The notes below the pieces were generated by a model. The model ran no database searches. It had not been told where the DNA came from and worked only from the letters and a program-made list of their open reading frames with translations. Shown one piece after another: positions 8,816-48,686 of a DNA stretch of 64,000 nucleotides. Made by a program: the position numbers and the translations under genes. Location: NCBI GenBank assembly GCA_951406725.2, contig OX597823.1:81902001-81966000 (forward strand). The letters run 5' to 3'. The stretch is from Octopus vulgaris (taxonomy: Eukaryota). Within the stretch, counting starts at the first letter, position 1, and each line of letters starts with the position of its first letter.

Positions 8816-10681
8816 CTACAGCTCATCGAAAGTGTATATATAATCAGGTATAGTTTCGACGGATTTCGGAAAGCATGAGGGCTTAAAGGATGCAGTGTCA
8901 TGGCAGTCAACAACTGACGCAGGCAGTTTATTCCATGCTTCAGCAACTCTGAGTGTGAAGAAATGTTTCCGAAAGTCATGGGAGCTGTGTTGTTTTCTGA
9001 CTTTGTAGGCATGTCCACGGGTGTTAGACACATGGAGATCAAAAAGGTGTTCAGTGTTGTTATTGGTGAGGTGGTTGACAACTTTGTGGGTGTTTACCAA
9101 GTCCGTCGCCAGACGCCGGAGCTTCAGTGAATCCATACCCAGGGAAACAAGGCGCTCAGAATATGGTAGGTGTCTGATGGAGGGTATGCGTTTGGTTGCA
9201 CGTCTCTGAACAGATTCCAGGAGGTCAATGTTCTGAGCAAGATAGGGGTTCCAAACTGATGATGCGAATTCCAAGTGTGGTCGTACCATAGCTGTATACA
9301 GTTTTAAATAGATGGCTGGAGAGCGGCTAACAAAAGTCTTGCTGAGTGATGTCAAGACACCCTCGGCCTTCTTGACAATTTTAGAGATATGCTTTGTCCA
9401 ACGCAAATCACTGCTGACAGTGATGCCTAGGTCACGCTCGCAAGAGGATTTCTTGATATCAGTGTTGTGGAGGGAGTATGTGGACGCAGAGTTTTTTCTC
9501 CCAAAATGCATGGTGGTGCACTTGTCCACAGCCAGTTTCAGTTGCCAGTCTGTGATCCATTGCTGCATTGTGTCCAGGTCTGATTGCAGGAAAGAGCTGT
9601 AGACAACAGGATCTGTCCTCTTGATTTCAAGGTACAGCTTGATGTCGTCTGCATATTTTAATACTGTGGCATTCTTTAAATTTGCATCTATGTCATTAAT
9701 GTATGCCACAAACAAGAGGGGACGAAGGACAGATCCCCGTGGTACACCCGATGACATCTCATATGGTGTAGAATGCTGTCCTAGAATTGTGACTACTTCC
9801 TTTCGGTTGAGAATGAAGGACTTCAACCAGTTAAAAAGGTCATCCCTCACACCCATTGCAGAGAGTTTCACCATAAGCCTTTTGTGTGGCACAGAGTTGA
9901 AAGCCTTAGCAAAGTCGAGGTAGACAACATCCACCCATGAGCCACTGTCAGTGATCTGAGTAATGTCCTCAAGGAACTCGACAAGCTGATCACTGCAGCT
10001 GGAGTTAGGGACAAATCCATATTGTGAGGGTCGGATGAGACTGTGTGAGCTCCAGAAGTTCCAAAGTGTTTCTCTGACACACGATTCCATCAGTTTTGCA
10101 ATACAGCTAGTGAGACTGACTGGGCGATAGTTGACAGGTGATGTGCGGTCGCCCTTCTTGAACAGAGGAATGACACTGGCAGTTTTCCACTGTTCCGGAG
10201 TAGCACCATTGTTGAGACAGTACTGGAAGAAAGTAGAGAGCTGGTGTAAAAGGAAGTACCTGCCACGTTTGAGAAGCAGGTATGTAACTCCATCAAGACC
10301 AGGGGAGGCATAGTTGCGCTTATTTTGAAGGTGACGTCGCAGCATTGCAGGTGTAAATTCCATAGTTGTTATGGAATTTGCTGTTAGAGATGGTGAAGAT
10401 GGTACATTTTGACTTTCAACAGTGAATATGTTTGCATAGCACTCGGCAATGAGTTCTGCGCATTCCTTGGGGTCGTCAGTGATCTGGTTTGTGTGAGGGT
10501 TGCGAAGAGGGCCCACTGGAGAGTGAGGTCTCTGCTTCGAATGCACATATTTCCAGAAAACCTTGCTGTCAGGATTGGCTGCTATGCACTGTTCAAATTC
10601 AAGCACTGCTTTTTTTGTCACTTGCTTGAGATGGTTGGAAGATTTATTCCGCTTCTTCCTGTTGGTGTCTGATTTATGCAA
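8816..10681 (-). pseudogene. LINE ORF2 reverse transcriptase portion (frameshifted from the APE portion)
   Basis: Motifs SPGLDG, NYRPVSLTS, YLDFAKAFNSVPH, SGVPRGSVL, YADD and TRGH...FFTLRVAEAWNKLP. Confidence 0.9.
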
Positions 10682-11604
10682 CTTGTAATCCCGTTCAGCA
10701 GTTCAACGTTCCTTCCTGGCAAGTCGGACCGCTGAAGTTTCCCAAATTGCACTTTTGGGGCGGTTCTTCTTTTTCTGTTTACATGGCACTGATGCTGCAT
10801 ATGCTGCCCATATTGAGTCAGGATACTCTGGAGTATAGTATTCACATCTCCAGAGTTGTAGAATTCACGCCAGTTTGGGTGCTGTAGTTCAGTGTGGTAC
10901 AGGTTCCAATCTGCTCTCTTCCAATCGAAGGAAGCAGTTTGGAGATGGTTCAGGTTTTTGTTGCCCGCAAGAGCCAGATTGGCGATGATCATAGCATGAT
11001 CAGAGTCACCTAGAGGTTCCTCCGTAGTGCAATTGATAACCGCTTCAGGAGTTGTGGTGAAGAGCAGGTCCAAGGTGTTGTCGCCTCTTGTTGGAGAGGT
11101 GACTACTTGTGACCAGTTTGAGTCCAGTACAAGCTCAACAAAATCGTTTGCACTCTGTGGCAAATGGAAGGTTTCCCAATTGATCTCAGGATGATTGAAA
11201 TCGCCTGCAATGAAAACATAAGTGGCTGTTTTCCTGGCAGCAGCTCGGAGGATATCGCAAAGCTGTGTGTCCCGATGGTAATTTGGGGGACGATAAACAA
11301 CACCAAGCAGGAGTGTTGACATGGTCATACGTACATCACAGAAAAAAACTTCTTCTTGTGATTCGTTCAAATCGGCACAAGGAATTACTGAAAAATTTGA
11401 ACGAACGTAGACCATCACACCACCACCACGGCGGTTAATGCGGTCCTTGCGGAAGAGGTTGTACCCAGTGATGTTGAAAACCCCATCACAGAGTAAGGAA
11501 TGCGCCCATGTTTCCGTGACAGTGATGAAGTCAGGGTCAATACTTCCAACGTAGGCGTTGAACAAATGAATTTTGTTGCACAAACTGCGAGCATTTAAGG
11601 ACAA
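10618..11604 (-). pseudogene. LINE ORF2 apurinic-like endonuclease portion
   Basis: Motifs LNARSLCNK, ITVTETW, DR...GGGV, VYRPP, GDFNHP, PTRGDNTLDL and SDH. Confidence 0.9.
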
Positions 11605-12090
11605 GAATTTGTACCCTGCTTGCAGTTTATGATGGTGTAGAGGATGGCAGGTTGTTCAGGTTTAGTTTCCCTGAGTTGCTGTAGTTTTTTTAGTGTCAGT
11701 CATTGTGGGTAGAGAGCACTCAGACCAGCTGTTATCTCTCTTCCACGTTTCACCCGTCTTAATAAATCTCCAGATTTGAGGAAATGAGGAAATATATATA
11801 TGAATGGAAAAAAAAAATAAAGAAGAGTTCAGAATTATTTAACGAGTTTAATTGGATCAAATAAAACAGCTGTTTGAAATAGGCTCGAAAATAAATTGAG
11901 TGCATTAAAATCAAGAACAGCTTTTAGACTGGCAAGAGAAATATTTCAGGTTTGATTTTTGAGAATGAATACCGAGTGGCGTTAAGATTTCATTAGTTGC
12001 AAACAAACAAATCCAGTCCGAAACTGGATGGAAAACAAGGAACACATTATGTACACAGATTCAATATTCAGTTTAAGGCATTGTTCTTTA

Positions 12091-12499
12091 ATTATTATTA
12101 TTATTTCTTTATTGCCCACAGGGGACAAACAAGGACAGACAAACGGTTTGAGCCGATTACATCGACCCCAGTGCGTAACTGGTAATTAATTCATCGACCC
12201 CGAAAGGCTGAAAGGCAAAGTCGACCTCGGCGGAATTTGAACTCAGAACATAACGGCAGACGAAATACCGATTTCTTTACTACCCACAAGGGGCTAAACA
12301 CAGAGAGGACCATCAAGGACAGACAAACGGATTGAGCCGATTACATCGACCCCAGTGCGTAACTGGTACTTAATTCATCGACCCCGAAAGGATGAAAGGC
12401 AAAGTCGACATGGGCGGAATTTTAACTCAGAACGCAACGGCAGACGAAATACCGCTAAGCATTTCGCCCGGCGTGCTAACGTTTCTGCCAGCTCGCCGC
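12091..12499 (-). mobile_element. tRNA-derived SINE, family C, tandem dimer with a Tx1-like 3' tail
   Basis: One head followed by two body+tail units joined at 12270/12271, then an (AAT)n end. Degenerate TSD ATTG(TT/CC)CTTTAATTAT. Confidence 0.8.
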
Positions 12500-12664
12500 T
12501 ATATTGCCCTTTAATTATAAAAGGAGGAAGATTTCGTAACGGCATGAATCTCAGAGCATCTCTTATCCCTTCCACACGATGTTTAATGAGCATTCTTACA
12601 CTGCAAATAAAACAATAAAGATGAAAAGTGAATGCATAAAAACCGCTTTAAAAATAAAAGAAAG

Positions 12665-32933: not shown

Positions 32934-35457
32934 AAGTTCCACTATTCGGTCTTTGACGAATCAAAATGGTGTCTTGGTAAATAAACCCGAGAAAATGTGT
33001 GAAGCCTTTCGGGAGTACTTTGCCCAGCTGTTCGGGGGTGATGGCGGTCCTTGTGGTGGGAGAGCCCTCGAGGACTTTCTTGCCGGGCTGCCGTGTCTCT
33101 CGGGGTCGGATGCGGAGACTTGCGAAGGGCCAATCATGCCTGTGGAGGTGATGGAGGCTTTGGCCGATTGTAAAGCGGGTAAGTCGCCGGGACTTGATGG
33201 TCTTCCGTATGAGTTGTATAAATGTATGCCAGACTTGTTCAGGCAACTACTGGCTGACGTGTACGCGAACTGGAAACAGAATGAGTTTATCCCCAGATCT
33301 GTGCGCCGGGAAGTAGTGACGTTGGTCAGAAAGGACCCGGACAAGAGGGACGTTATAGAGAATTTCAGGCCCATCACTCTGTTAAACGCAGAAGTGAAGA
33401 TTTTGGCCAAGGTCTTAGCAAAAAGGTTGGCGCGTGTCGCGAATGGTATAGTCGGGAAGGCATAAACATGTGCCATCCCAGGCAGAACCATTCAGGATGC
33501 CCTCCATCTTATTCGCTATACCATAGAGAGGGTTGGTAATAAATCTGGCAAAGGTGGGGCATTGGTACATTTAGACCAGTCTAAAGCATTTGATAGGGTT
33601 GACCATCGATACCTGGCGACTGTGCTTGGGCGGCTCGGCTTGGGTCTTGGCTTCCTCAGGTGGTTTATCGCTTTGTACCACAACATTGACTCAATAGTTC
33701 GGGTGAACGGTTTCCTTTCGAAGCCGTTCTGCATCAGACGCTCGGTTCGTCAAGGATGTCCGCTCTCACCACTTTTGTATGTGATGGCTCTGGAGCCGCT
33801 ACTGCGAAGGTTGAGTGGCATCCCGAGAGAACCAGATCTAGAGGAGTTTGTTACGGGTTACGTGGATGATATCACTATCAGCGTAACCTCGGTAGCACGC
33901 CTACGGGAAGTGGGTAATACTATTGAGGCTTACGAGGTGGCAGGAGCAAAGATTAACCGGGAAAAGTCGGTCGGCTTGCAGCTCGGCACCTGAGTTGGCA
34001 AGTCGATGCCTTCAGACAGCGTTGTTGGGTGCTGGACGTAGGGACCGGTTAAGTTGCTGGGAGTTTGGTTTGGACCAGGCCTCCAGATAGAGAAGAACTG
34101 GACGGAGGTATTGAGCAGGGTGGCTGCAGTAGTGAAGACCTGGTCTTGGCGGTGGCAATCCCTGAAAGGGAGGGCAGAGGTGGCCAATGTGTTTATCGCA
34201 TCGGTCATTACCTACCGCCTGACCGTCGTGCCCTGTCCGGATTCGTGGTTGATCAGGTTGGAGAGACAGCTCTTTCGCTTTTTGTGGAAGGACAGGTCGC
34301 CATTTGTAAAACGCTCTGTCTGCTGTCAAAAGCCTTTAAAGGGAGGTTTAGTGATGCCTTAGTTAATGATGCGCAGACATGCGTTGTGGTTGAGGCACCT
34401 CTGGATTCTCCTGGATAATGAACGGGTGTGGTCTCCGCTGGCCAGACAAATGTTCCCCGATTTCAAATACTTTTGCGAACAGGAAGCCTGGTGTTCTCTT
34501 AGACCGAGGTCGAGTGAGTGACATAAAGAGTGCTGTAAGGCCCTCTTGCTATTCCGGCGCTCGGGCAACGCCAGCAGTGGGGATTCCACACGGATTTTAT
34601 ATAGTGGGTTGGTAGAGTCTGAATGCGACGATAGCCTGGGGGGGGGGGGCGACTCTAGGTCCCGGGTTTATTCAACTGGACAGCCTGTTTCACTGTACAT
34701 TCGGGTTGAGAACGTTGGACAACTTCCAAAAGTCCTTAACCTGGCAATGCTACAAAGGTGCCTTGCCCGTTTGGGATAAGCTCGCAAGACATGGTAAGCG
34801 TCAGTCGCCGACCTGTCCAAGATGCTGTGGGGGGGGGGAGAGGGAAACTATCCCTCACGCTATTGTTCAATGTCCGGAGATAACTGAAAAGTGGGCTTAT
34901 GCTGAACACCTGTTGTCCGGCGAAGGAAGAGTACAGCTGTCGACTGAGTTAATTATAAAAATTCACCAGCCGGGAGTTTTAACGAACGAAGGTAAGAGTT
35001 GCTTTCTCACGGTTGTATCAATAGCGAAAGAGGCAGTATGGAAAACAAGGATAAAAGGAATTAAGACAGGCAACTTTATCTCTGGCCACAATTTACGGTC
35101 ATTTTGTTTTCCTTTTCATTTGAAAAGGAAGCTGTGGCTGGAGAAGAGATGTCTATCGGAGTGTACGTTCCAAAAGAGATGGAAGCATGTTGCACGAGTG
35201 TTGTGCGTGCAAGGAACCGTGTGAAAAGACGAAAAAAAAAAAAAGGTACCAGCGGTAGATCGGGGCTTGTGGGGTCGGAGCGTGGCCTGATCATCGCTTC
35301 ATTTGTATTGTCTTTGTATTGTTAATTCCATTCGTTTTTTTTTATATTGTATTTAAATTTTTAAAGTCACAATACATGTAAAATCATATCGCTTCACTGA
35401 TCCCATCAGTTGTTCTGTCCATTTCTATGTTTGGCCCCCGGTGGGCAATAAAGAAAT
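32934..35457 (+). mobile_element. Tx1-clade (L1 group) LINE, 5'-truncated pseudogene with 3' UTR
   Basis: Interrupted ORFs with KSPGLDGLPYELYK, NFRPITLLN, TCAIPGRTI, LDQSKAFDRVDH, VRQGCPLSPLLY, YVDD and CCHC finger CPRC...ETIPHAIVQC. Ends GTGGGCAATAAAGAAAT. Confidence 0.9.
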
Positions 35458-35628
35458 TGGTATTTCGCCCGTTACTACGTTCTGAGTTCAAATTCCGCCG
35501 AGGTCGATTTTGCCTTTCATTTTTTCGCGATCGATTAATAAGTACCAGTTACGCACTGGGGTCGATGTAATCGACTTAATCCTCTCCCCCAAGCTACCCT
35601 TGTGGCAAAATTTTAAAATCATTATTTA
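35458..35628 (+). mobile_element. SINE family C 3' remainder, with a different tail
   Basis: GGTATTTCG...TTCTGAGTTCAAATTCCGCCGAGGTCGA...GTACCAGTTACGCACTGGGGTCGATGTAATCG matches the reverse complement of 12150-12270. Confidence 0.8.
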
Positions 35629-47600: not shown

Positions 47601-48686
47601 CAAGGCTATTTTGAATTGTGAAGACTTCCGTACCCGGATTAAGGTGTTAGTACAGAGGGCATTGTGTGGCACCATCATTAACAATAGATGGTGGCACTCC
47701 CTCAAAAGAGCCATTCGTTCAGAGTCCATTAGATTTAGCAATCAGCTAAGGTTAGATAGGTCTAGGATAGAGGACGATTTAGTTAAGAATCTAAACGAGG
47801 CAATGGAAGCTGGCTCTGCATCCGGAGTGATGGCGGCAAGGACGGTATTGTACCGTCACCTTAACTCCAAACACGAAGGTTGCAGAGTCAGAGCTAAGCT
47901 ACGCGCTGGGAAACGAGAAGGTATTAACGTTGCCGGATGGGCCTGTCGAGTGGAGAGTCAGAGAGGTAACAAAGCCTCAATCAAGTCTTTAACTGACGAA
48001 CAGGGACAAAAGATCTATGGACAGGAGGAGATGCAAAAGTTTCTTCACCAGCATTTCGCCCGCGTGTTCGGGGGTGGTGTGGCGCCGGAGCGGGGAGGAC
48101 CTTAAAGGACTTCCTGGCCGGCGGACCGCGGCTCTCGGGGCGTGAGGTGGAGTGCTGTGAAGAAGCGATCACTCCCGCGGAGATAGAGGGGATACTGGCC
48201 GGATGCGCCGGGGAGAAGTCGCCGGGGTTGGATGGTCTGCCCTACGAGTTTTACCAAAGTATGCGGGACTTGTTCGGGGGAATATTGGCAGGCGTCTACA
48301 CGAACTGGCAGCAGAATGGGAGAATTCCCAGTTCTGTAAGCCGGGGAGTGGTGACGCTAATCCAGAAAGACCCGAGCAAGGGGGATAACATTAGTAACTA
48401 CAGGCCCATAACTCTACTTAATGTAGAGTTAAAGATTTTGGCCAAGGTGTTGGCAAAAAGGTTGACGGTTGTCGTGGAGAAACTTGTAGGGAGAGCACAG
48501 ACATGTGCAATTCCAGGCAGGTCGATCCAGGACAATCTTCACCTTATACGCTACACCTTAGATAGGGTGGGTAAATTAACCGGCAAGGGCGGGGGTAATG
48601 GTCCATTTAGACCAAAGTAAAGCGTTCGATAGGGTAGACCATGAGTACCTGGCGACGGTCCTCGAAGCGGCTGGACTGGGCCCTGA
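47601..48686 (+). mobile_element. Tx1-clade LINE internal fragment, second subfamily
   Basis: Frameshifted ORFs with WWHSLK, KSPGLDGLPYEFY, NYRPITLLN, QTCAIPGRSI and LDQSKAFDRVDH. Confidence 0.88.

Follow-up and report, generated by a model that had tools for sequence, protein, structure and literature searches.

An L1/Tx1-type LINE inserted at one base of a SINE head in the Octopus vulgaris genome, and a SINE with a related tail

The LINE Copy and the SINEs at the Locus

The window analyzed here is a stretch of 64,000 nucleotides of the Octopus vulgaris genome (contig OX597823.1, positions 81,902,001 to 81,966,000). It contains a copy of a LINE assigned to subfamily A, the remaining part of the SINE into which this copy is inserted and, on the opposite strand, a SINE dimer (Table 1). 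Full copies of subfamily A measure about 5.0 kb, and the window copy falls short of this length by 2,531 nt. Its ORF2 remnant matches RVT_1 (E = 1.3e-18) and zf-RVT (E = 6.1e-07). The window also harbors 28 tRNA-Glu genes in duplicated units of 2–8 kb on both strands (1139-63594), as well as a second, unrelated APE-RT LINE on the minus strand (8816-11655), which ends in (TAT)n, shares about 25% amino acid identity with subfamily B and served only as outgroup.

Table 1. Position of the LINE copy, its host SINE and the SINE dimer in the window.
Feature	Position	Strand	Remarks
LINE subfamily A copy, 5'-incomplete, L1/Tx1 type	32935..35458	+	91% amino acid identity to intact subfamily B ORF2
ORF2 remnant, broken (stops, frameshifts); reverse transcriptase and C-terminal zinc-binding domain	32935..35224	+	Domain matches, ORF list
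LINE 3' UTR, poly(A)-less; terminal T (35458) element-encoded	35225..35458	+	
SINE-shared tail; short predicted stem-loop before AATAAAGAAAT	35417..35457	+	Alignment
Target site within SINE head, downstream copy of the 15–16 bp duplication; upstream copy lost here	35459..35473	+	
Host SINE, 3' part	35459..35582	+	Ends at about 35582; 85% identity to SINE body
B-box-like GTTCAAATTCC in host SINE	35486-35496	+	Motif by eye
Non-Tx1 tail after host SINE	to about 35625	+	
SINE unit; head present, target site intact, tail of Tx1 type	12271..12500	-	
Second SINE unit, beginning at the target site (self-nested dimer), shorter Tx1-type tail	12103..12270	-	

The original prediction, made from the letters of the window, held that the LINE shares its 3' end with the tails of these SINEs, and the alignments bear this out. 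Positions 35424-35457 match minus-strand 12271-12304 at 28 of 34 nt, and the last 17 nt of the LINE are identical to the tail of the second SINE unit (ending at 12103). This similarity exceeds chance, with a local score of 46–47 against a maximum of 24–26 over 500 shuffles. The SINE head motif likewise stands directly 3' of the LINE, where T at 35458 is followed by GGTATTTCG from 35459. The further proposal that this is the same junction as in the SINE dimer holds for the site but not for the C placed in the junction, since the junction base belongs to the element and not to the target. The LINE terminates in AAAGAAATT and the SINE usually in AAAGAAATA (97 of the first 100 listed junctions have A), while the C in the dimer of the window, whose two units are 7.8% apart, is a rare variant found in 2 of 59 junction units. 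The terminal T of the LINE is considered element-encoded because an off-target copy (L119) has T there while its upstream duplicate reads A. Moreover, the SINE struck by the window LINE bears a different, non-Tx1 tail and, therefore, the LINE targets the head irrespective of the tail. As had also been noted, no 5' part of a SINE lies upstream of the LINE, whose 5' boundary is at about 32935.

Insertion at One Base of the SINE Head

The 3' ends of the LINE were collected across the 2.8 Gb genome with a 3'-UTR query stopping before the tail (260 candidates, 40 scored, 30 fetched, the last including the window copy and one tandem duplicate) and with a LINE-diagnostic 27-mer pattern whose flank was left open, only C at +8 being excluded (71 matches). 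These best-match and exact-pattern sets are biased toward well-preserved copies. Among the best 30 of the 260 matches, 25 run cleanly into a SINE body at the same base, two reach the SINE via a deletion, one enters a sister LINE at the motif and two are off-target. The pattern matches are followed by TGGTATTT in 13 cases, by TCGTATTT in 49 and by other sequences in nine, 62 of the 71 reading exactly T(G/C)GTATTT; the nine others comprise five mutated targets, one sister-LINE head, one SINE that is not a LINE and two off-target copies. Tabulated in this way, the SINE head motif, unspecified in the pattern, follows 67 of 70 LINE 3' ends, the remaining three consisting of one insertion into a sister LINE carrying the motif and the two off-target copies.

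The 5' ends give the same picture. Inspection of 9 kb upstream of 41 loci revealed 14 full-length copies, all of them with a SINE head or an array junction directly upstream, and an independent 5'-UTR search (106 candidates, 40 scored, 30 fetched) found such sequences upstream of 29 of the best 30 5' ends. The target duplication at these junctions is 15 bp long in subfamily A and 16 bp in subfamily B. In addition, the off-target copies L046, L050 and L119 are flanked by 15–16 bp duplications of look-alike sites, so the end of the element is fixed at AAAGAAAT(T). The proposal that a Tx1 family targets a SINE is thus upheld as regards targeting: insertion takes place at one base of the SINE head, genome-wide and as judged from both ends, and the window junction is not a one-off.

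Several side observations concern these ends. A sister family, C, carries the target motif at its 5' end and is found directly after A copies (L159, L160, L154, L123). The downstream flanks of L154 and L159 are 91% identical over 2.55 kb, contain the same rearrangement and both end in (TA)n, which may reflect a 3' transduction or an old duplication. B insertions of only 40–160 nt (L128, L133, L161, L166, L172, L177) form chimeras of head, LINE tail and SINE body, a possible route to new SINE subfamilies.

Copies without an Upstream Head

Of the 37 on-target copies in the old subfamily A, 18, including the one in the window, lack the upstream SINE, versus 4 of 51 copies in the young subfamily B (p = 3e-5; two off-target A copies were omitted and one B tandem duplicate was counted once). 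All 13 full-length A copies tested are internally deleted, with 35% of their bases gone, whereas this is the case for 4 of 37 B copies, with 2% gone. Since head loss tracks deletion load, later deletion is the likely cause of the missing heads, and the absent 5' half and head of the window copy are likely due to it. For the 18 A copies without a visible 5' target, loss of the head by deletion is deduced from this contrast between subfamilies. Some truncated copies lost target bases during insertion, and no paralogous empty site for the window copy was found in the tRNA cluster and the next 10 kb. Across the A loci L033-L069, which are about 9% apart, the deletions in the 13 full copies range from 0.15 to 3.7 kb and their breakpoints are all different.

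Repeated Targeting and Alternative Readings

The copies of subfamily B are 1.5–2.5% apart, while the SINEs downstream of them (nt 70-184) are 8–11% apart and have mixed subfamily alleles. Likewise, A copies precede at least four SINE body types and both tail classes, with the Tx1-type tail in 15 of 34. The host SINEs therefore predate the young LINE copies and are more heterogeneous, which argues for repeated targeting and not for one composite element. In a composite element, a head–LINE–SINE unit born of one founding insertion would have spread whole to random sites, its specificity being only apparent, and this would suit the half of A copies that lack an upstream head, the head type and similar body start shared by nearly all B copies, and the 2.55 kb of common downstream sequence in two A copies, maybe by 3' transduction. 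Such a unit is nevertheless barely credible and is largely refuted, since divergence among the downstream SINEs, with their mixture of subfamily alleles and tail types, is roughly five times that of the B LINE, truncated LINE copies are embedded in heads or junctions of SINEs, the off-target insertions stop at the tail and have duplications of their own, and head loss follows the deletion load given above.

A homing-like gene conversion, in which RNA–DNA homology at both ends of the element and not sequence recognition by the endonuclease would direct it to SINEs, finds some favor in the private alleles at 5' junctions (next section) and in the SINE bodies after B, which show 0.5–0.8 times the pooled-background divergence in nine of ten windows. 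It is still very improbable, because there is no gradient away from the junction and the rates equal those of the young C-type SINE subfamily; moreover, T at +18 is equally common in C-type heads (28 of 34 listed) and after B (27 of 31), and the off-target insertions have staggered cuts of 15–16 bp. A candidate of this kind, long 3' co-conversion by read-through RNA, was suggested by the more uniform start of B hosts and was rejected, given that the divergence has no gradient from the junction and that the +18 skew is an artefact of a small background of 15 heads. Repeated targeting of older SINEs by the LINE is, thus, the reading retained below.

Private Head Alleles and Site Preferences

The exact head variant ATGCATTGTGGTATATCG occurs eight times in the genome, in all eight cases before the LINE. 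A variant milder by one change occurs seven times, five of them in plain SINEs, which can be explained by chance. The ATGCATTGTGGTATATCG variant is present in 10 of 13 copies of one LINE clade (support 90) and in 1 of 17 copies outside it, and the five such loci with both ends visible have the ordinary GGTATTTC on the 3' side and different bodies. B loci, in turn, have T upstream and C downstream in 19 of 37 cases and the reverse in two. These allele differences between the upstream and downstream copies suggest that the upstream copy is often written from element RNA and, on this basis, LINE lineages would write private SINE-head alleles into their 5' junctions. The ends of the B element are present in contigs of four runs, although such contigs cannot show RNA ends.

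Subfamily B occupies heads reading GCGTAGC-CGTATTTCG, which represent 34 of the first 100 exact heads listed. Among truncated B copies, the eight informative ones (besides two ambiguous and four with none) comprise six in C-type heads, one in a G-type head and one in a junction (p = 0.02), suggesting that the younger subfamily B favors SINEs of the subfamily whose first target base is C, a one-base difference. The idea that C at +2 in B is written from RNA was mostly rejected because truncated B copies occupy C-type heads, L064 and L175 being the loci that do not fit. Furthermore, array junctions are absent from the listed full-length B junctions (28 + 10) and account for 10 of 30 A ends. The hairpin loop of the endonuclease, which may help to set target specificity, reads NSDGSSRT in A, NSDGSTRT in B and NNDGSHRS in D, so that A and B differ in it by one residue, with nine further differences elsewhere in the domain. 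The alignment places this loop opposite the segment that was swapped in the structure of the LR1 chimera.

Abundance, Nesting and Movement of the SINE

The SINE is about 230 nt long and is represented genome-wide by 140,158 exact tails and 33,411 exact heads. It is short, non-coding and highly repeated, and has target duplications and a LINE-related tail, as is usual in tRNA-derived SINEs. Motifs resembling the A and B boxes of a tRNA are read by eye in its head; ARAGORN made no tRNA call on the SINE, and a comparison with Rfam returned nothing with E values up to 10.

According to the original prediction, the tail-bearing SINE inserts into its own kind. Insertion of this type is indeed abundant and at the same base, but the aim of the SINE is far looser than that of the LINE: NGGTATTTC directly follows 41,795 of the 140,158 exact tails (29.8%; controls 0 and 5), about 70% of the tails have no exact motif next to them, and 43 of the first 100 rows allowing mismatches are not on the motif, as judged by eye with a pattern slightly biased toward the target. 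Of 34 terminal SINE insertions, 14 of them SINEs later split by B, 18 have duplications, against a mean of 0.2 after shuffling. These are 10–18 bp long and mostly begin right after AAAGAAATA, often with GGT, like the LINE target. By virtue of these duplications at look-alike sites, the SINE shows the signature of the A/B lineage with a looser aim. Adjacent array units differ by 0.084 versus 0.098 for random pairs (29 pairs, p = 0.08), so the arrays would fit serial insertion with some duplication; several adjacent pairs are less than 5% apart, and some array junctions may have been copied from multimeric masters. Two extra recurrent SINE-in-SINE sites were also observed genome-wide, one near head position 13, before AGAAACGTTAG, and one antisense in the body, beginning GGTACTTA (examples of both: L038, L053, L171, L136).

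It could be argued that the LINE is site-specific and that an unrelated LINE clade is the main mover of the SINE, the arrays then being products of read-through multimer masters or of tandem duplication. The exact motif after only 30% of the tails, the many SINE ends running into (TA)n or (TAA)n, the presence in the window of another LINE ending in (TAT)n and the few very similar neighboring units all agree with this. It remains unlikely, however, in view of the match between the SINE tail and the tail of the A/B lineage, the length, starting point and frequent GGT of the SINE duplications described above, and the right-hand units of junctions, which span several subfamilies and other tails. 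From the sequence signatures compared, we regard mobilization of the SINE by proteins of this LINE lineage, acting through the common tail, as likely.

Origin of the Shared Tail

A sister family, D, has 56% amino acid identity to B, 3,758 candidates, other targets and similar duplications. Its tail frame, TGTCC..TCTATGT..AATAAAGAAAT, is homologous to that of A/B, with a different stem. The SINE tail combines the doubled TGTCC of D with the stem of A/B and has a terminal A, whereas the A/B LINE has no duplicated TGTCC and a terminal T; a LINE with the exact tail of the SINE was not found. The proposal that the SINE acquired the Tx1 tail therefore stands as to homology and requires amendment as to the donor, which is probably a relative and not exactly A/B, likely an ancestor or sister of these subfamilies. 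Since D shares the tail frame while having other targets, the borrowing likely went from LINE to SINE. The link to D emerges only from the multiple alignment, as the D tail alone scores 24–25 against the SINE, not above shuffles (25–28), and the stems of D and A/B are out of shared register. Tail folding is no better than that of shuffles (z of -0.37 for the LINE tail and of +1.08 and -1.82 for two SINE tails).

The reverse transfer would make the SINE the source of the LINE tail, captured by template switching or by read-through with deletion. It would be favored by the life of this LINE inside SINE arrays and by a stem-loop that in A/B equals that of the SINE, unlike that of D. It is judged improbable, given the homologous frame in D, with its other targets, and the many SINE copies that carry other tails joined at the same point. 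Donation by a relative of A/B is the preferred direction.

Family D was also observed in the window, where an internal RT fragment (47635-48685, plus strand) lies in a tRNA-Glu repeat spacer and is 95–100% identical to copies elsewhere. This family is very young and abundant, with full copies of about 5.3 kb, some of them spaced 5.3 kb apart, and at least two recurrent non-SINE targets.

Classification and Relation to Known Systems

An intact natural ORF2 of 1,134 aa (L168) contains Exo_endo_phos, RVT_1 and zf-RVT only, without RNase H, and a CCHC motif, the zinc knuckle of the Tx1-type architecture, is read in the ORF1 region. The best solved relative of ORF2 is human L1 ORF2p (221 bits, versus 76 bits for R2), the best-scoring named match in a whole-protein search is a 'Transposon TX1' protein of Stylophora (322 bits), and the closest named relative is an Argonauta hians protein (63% over the RT region). 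In an RT tree of 33 rows, without reference Tx1L, Keno or human L1, subfamilies A and B, family D and the Argonauta protein form a 99% clade within a 27-row group (support 91) that holds the 'Transposon TX1' row, separate from the rows of plant type and those with RNase H. Look-ups in a protein atlas and in clusters returned no clade name for the LINE protein. Kojima places the threshold for sequence-specific insertion at over 20% of flanks (PMC4494074), and the values here are 67 of 70 3' ends and 29 of 30 5' ends, with duplications of 15–16 bp. The predicted membership in Tx1 is thus backed by architecture and by one named homologue rather than by the tree; the LINE behaves as a Tx1 element would, and it probably belongs to that clade.

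The comparisons that follow draw on the accessible portions of the papers cited. Tx1 families that target other transposons and have SINE passengers are already published (PMC4494074). In crocodilians, Tx1-Mar elements likewise occupy fixed positions in another transposon, SINEU passengers share the Tx1-Mar target and form tandem insertions around a duplication, as in octopus, and some Tx1-Mar copies have SINE-like heads at their 5' ends (Kojima 2015, PMC4494074). However, the crocodilian target is a DNA transposon, Mariner, and the pairing is not described there as resting on a common 3' tail (PMC4494074), whereas in the octopus pair the target is the SINE itself, which, having a LINE-lineage tail, would generate targets of its own. 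Xenopus Tx1L in Tx1D, Keno (U2), and Kibi and Koshi (microsatellites) are also APE-type, sequence-specific members of the L1 group, yet their targets are a DNA transposon, an snRNA gene and simple repeats and not a retroposon moved by the same machinery (PMC4494074).

Stringent LINE–SINE pairs similarly have a SINE tail homologous to the LINE 3' end, and only three SINEs with L1-clade tails are counted among over 800 L1-clade LINEs (Ohshima review, PMC3747384); the octopus pair differs from stringent pairs in its site specificity and in having no poly(A). In R2 elements whose RNAs keep upstream 28S sequence, privately substituted sequence from the target is also propagated at 5' junctions, and the explanation given is annealing of cDNA to the target (Eickbush et al., PMC3774820), although R2 has a restriction-like endonuclease, a ribozyme and an rDNA target (PMC3774820) instead of an APE element and a SINE head. 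An octopus repeat annotation (PMC13282606) counts L1-Tx1 families, the word 'target' being absent from its accessible text, and the accessible parts of PMC5786205, PMC3531059, PMC4758252 and PMC3747384 contain no SINE-targeting case. A literature search retrieved no Tx1 element targeting a SINE and no account of the octopus system, although Repbase or the supplement of Kojima 2015 may list one.

Proposed Mechanism and Significance

The directly observed site, duplication length, independent older hosts, shared tail, nesting of the SINE at the same base and SINE duplications at look-alike sites can be accommodated in one explanation, which we hold to be very probable as a whole: the LINE inserts at one base of the SINE head, and tail-bearing SINEs ride the machinery of the same lineage, each copy being a fresh target. 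The first nick would be made by the LINE endonuclease just before (G/C)GTATTTCG and the second one 15–16 bp downstream, while reverse transcription is likely primed at the nick and begins from the shared poly(A)-less tail. The LINE RNA would start in the upstream SINE head, and its cDNA would anneal to the target head, writing the lineage-private 5' alleles; subfamily B would prefer C-type SINEs, in which the first target base is C. The tail of the SINE presumably derives from an ancestral or sister LINE of A/B, and the looser targeting of the SINE would reflect its mobilization by several such sister families. As for the window copy, its 5' half and head would have been removed by a later deletion.

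A more ambitious reading is tentative, and we consider it possible but rather doubtful. It envisages a closed LINE–SINE loop coevolving at single-base resolution, in which the passenger SINE seeds the only landing sites of its carrier, sister LINE subfamilies have divided the SINEs between them according to a single base at the nick, which is recognized through a one-residue difference in the hairpin loop, and the co-transcribed SINE head acts as a built-in 5' homology arm.

The private 5' alleles provide natural markers of how the second strand is joined, the step of non-LTR integration about which least is understood. Moreover, A, B and D are young and closely related, have intact ORF2s and differ in their targets and, thus, constitute a natural series on how L1-type endonucleases gain specificity. 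Both the series and the markers bear on gene insertion by site-specific retrotransposons. For the octopus genome, the usual one-way parasitism would be reversed, with the SINE giving its LINE a renewable, harmless target, and this renewable target may help to explain the coexistence of a few hundred LINE copies and more than 100,000 SINE tails.
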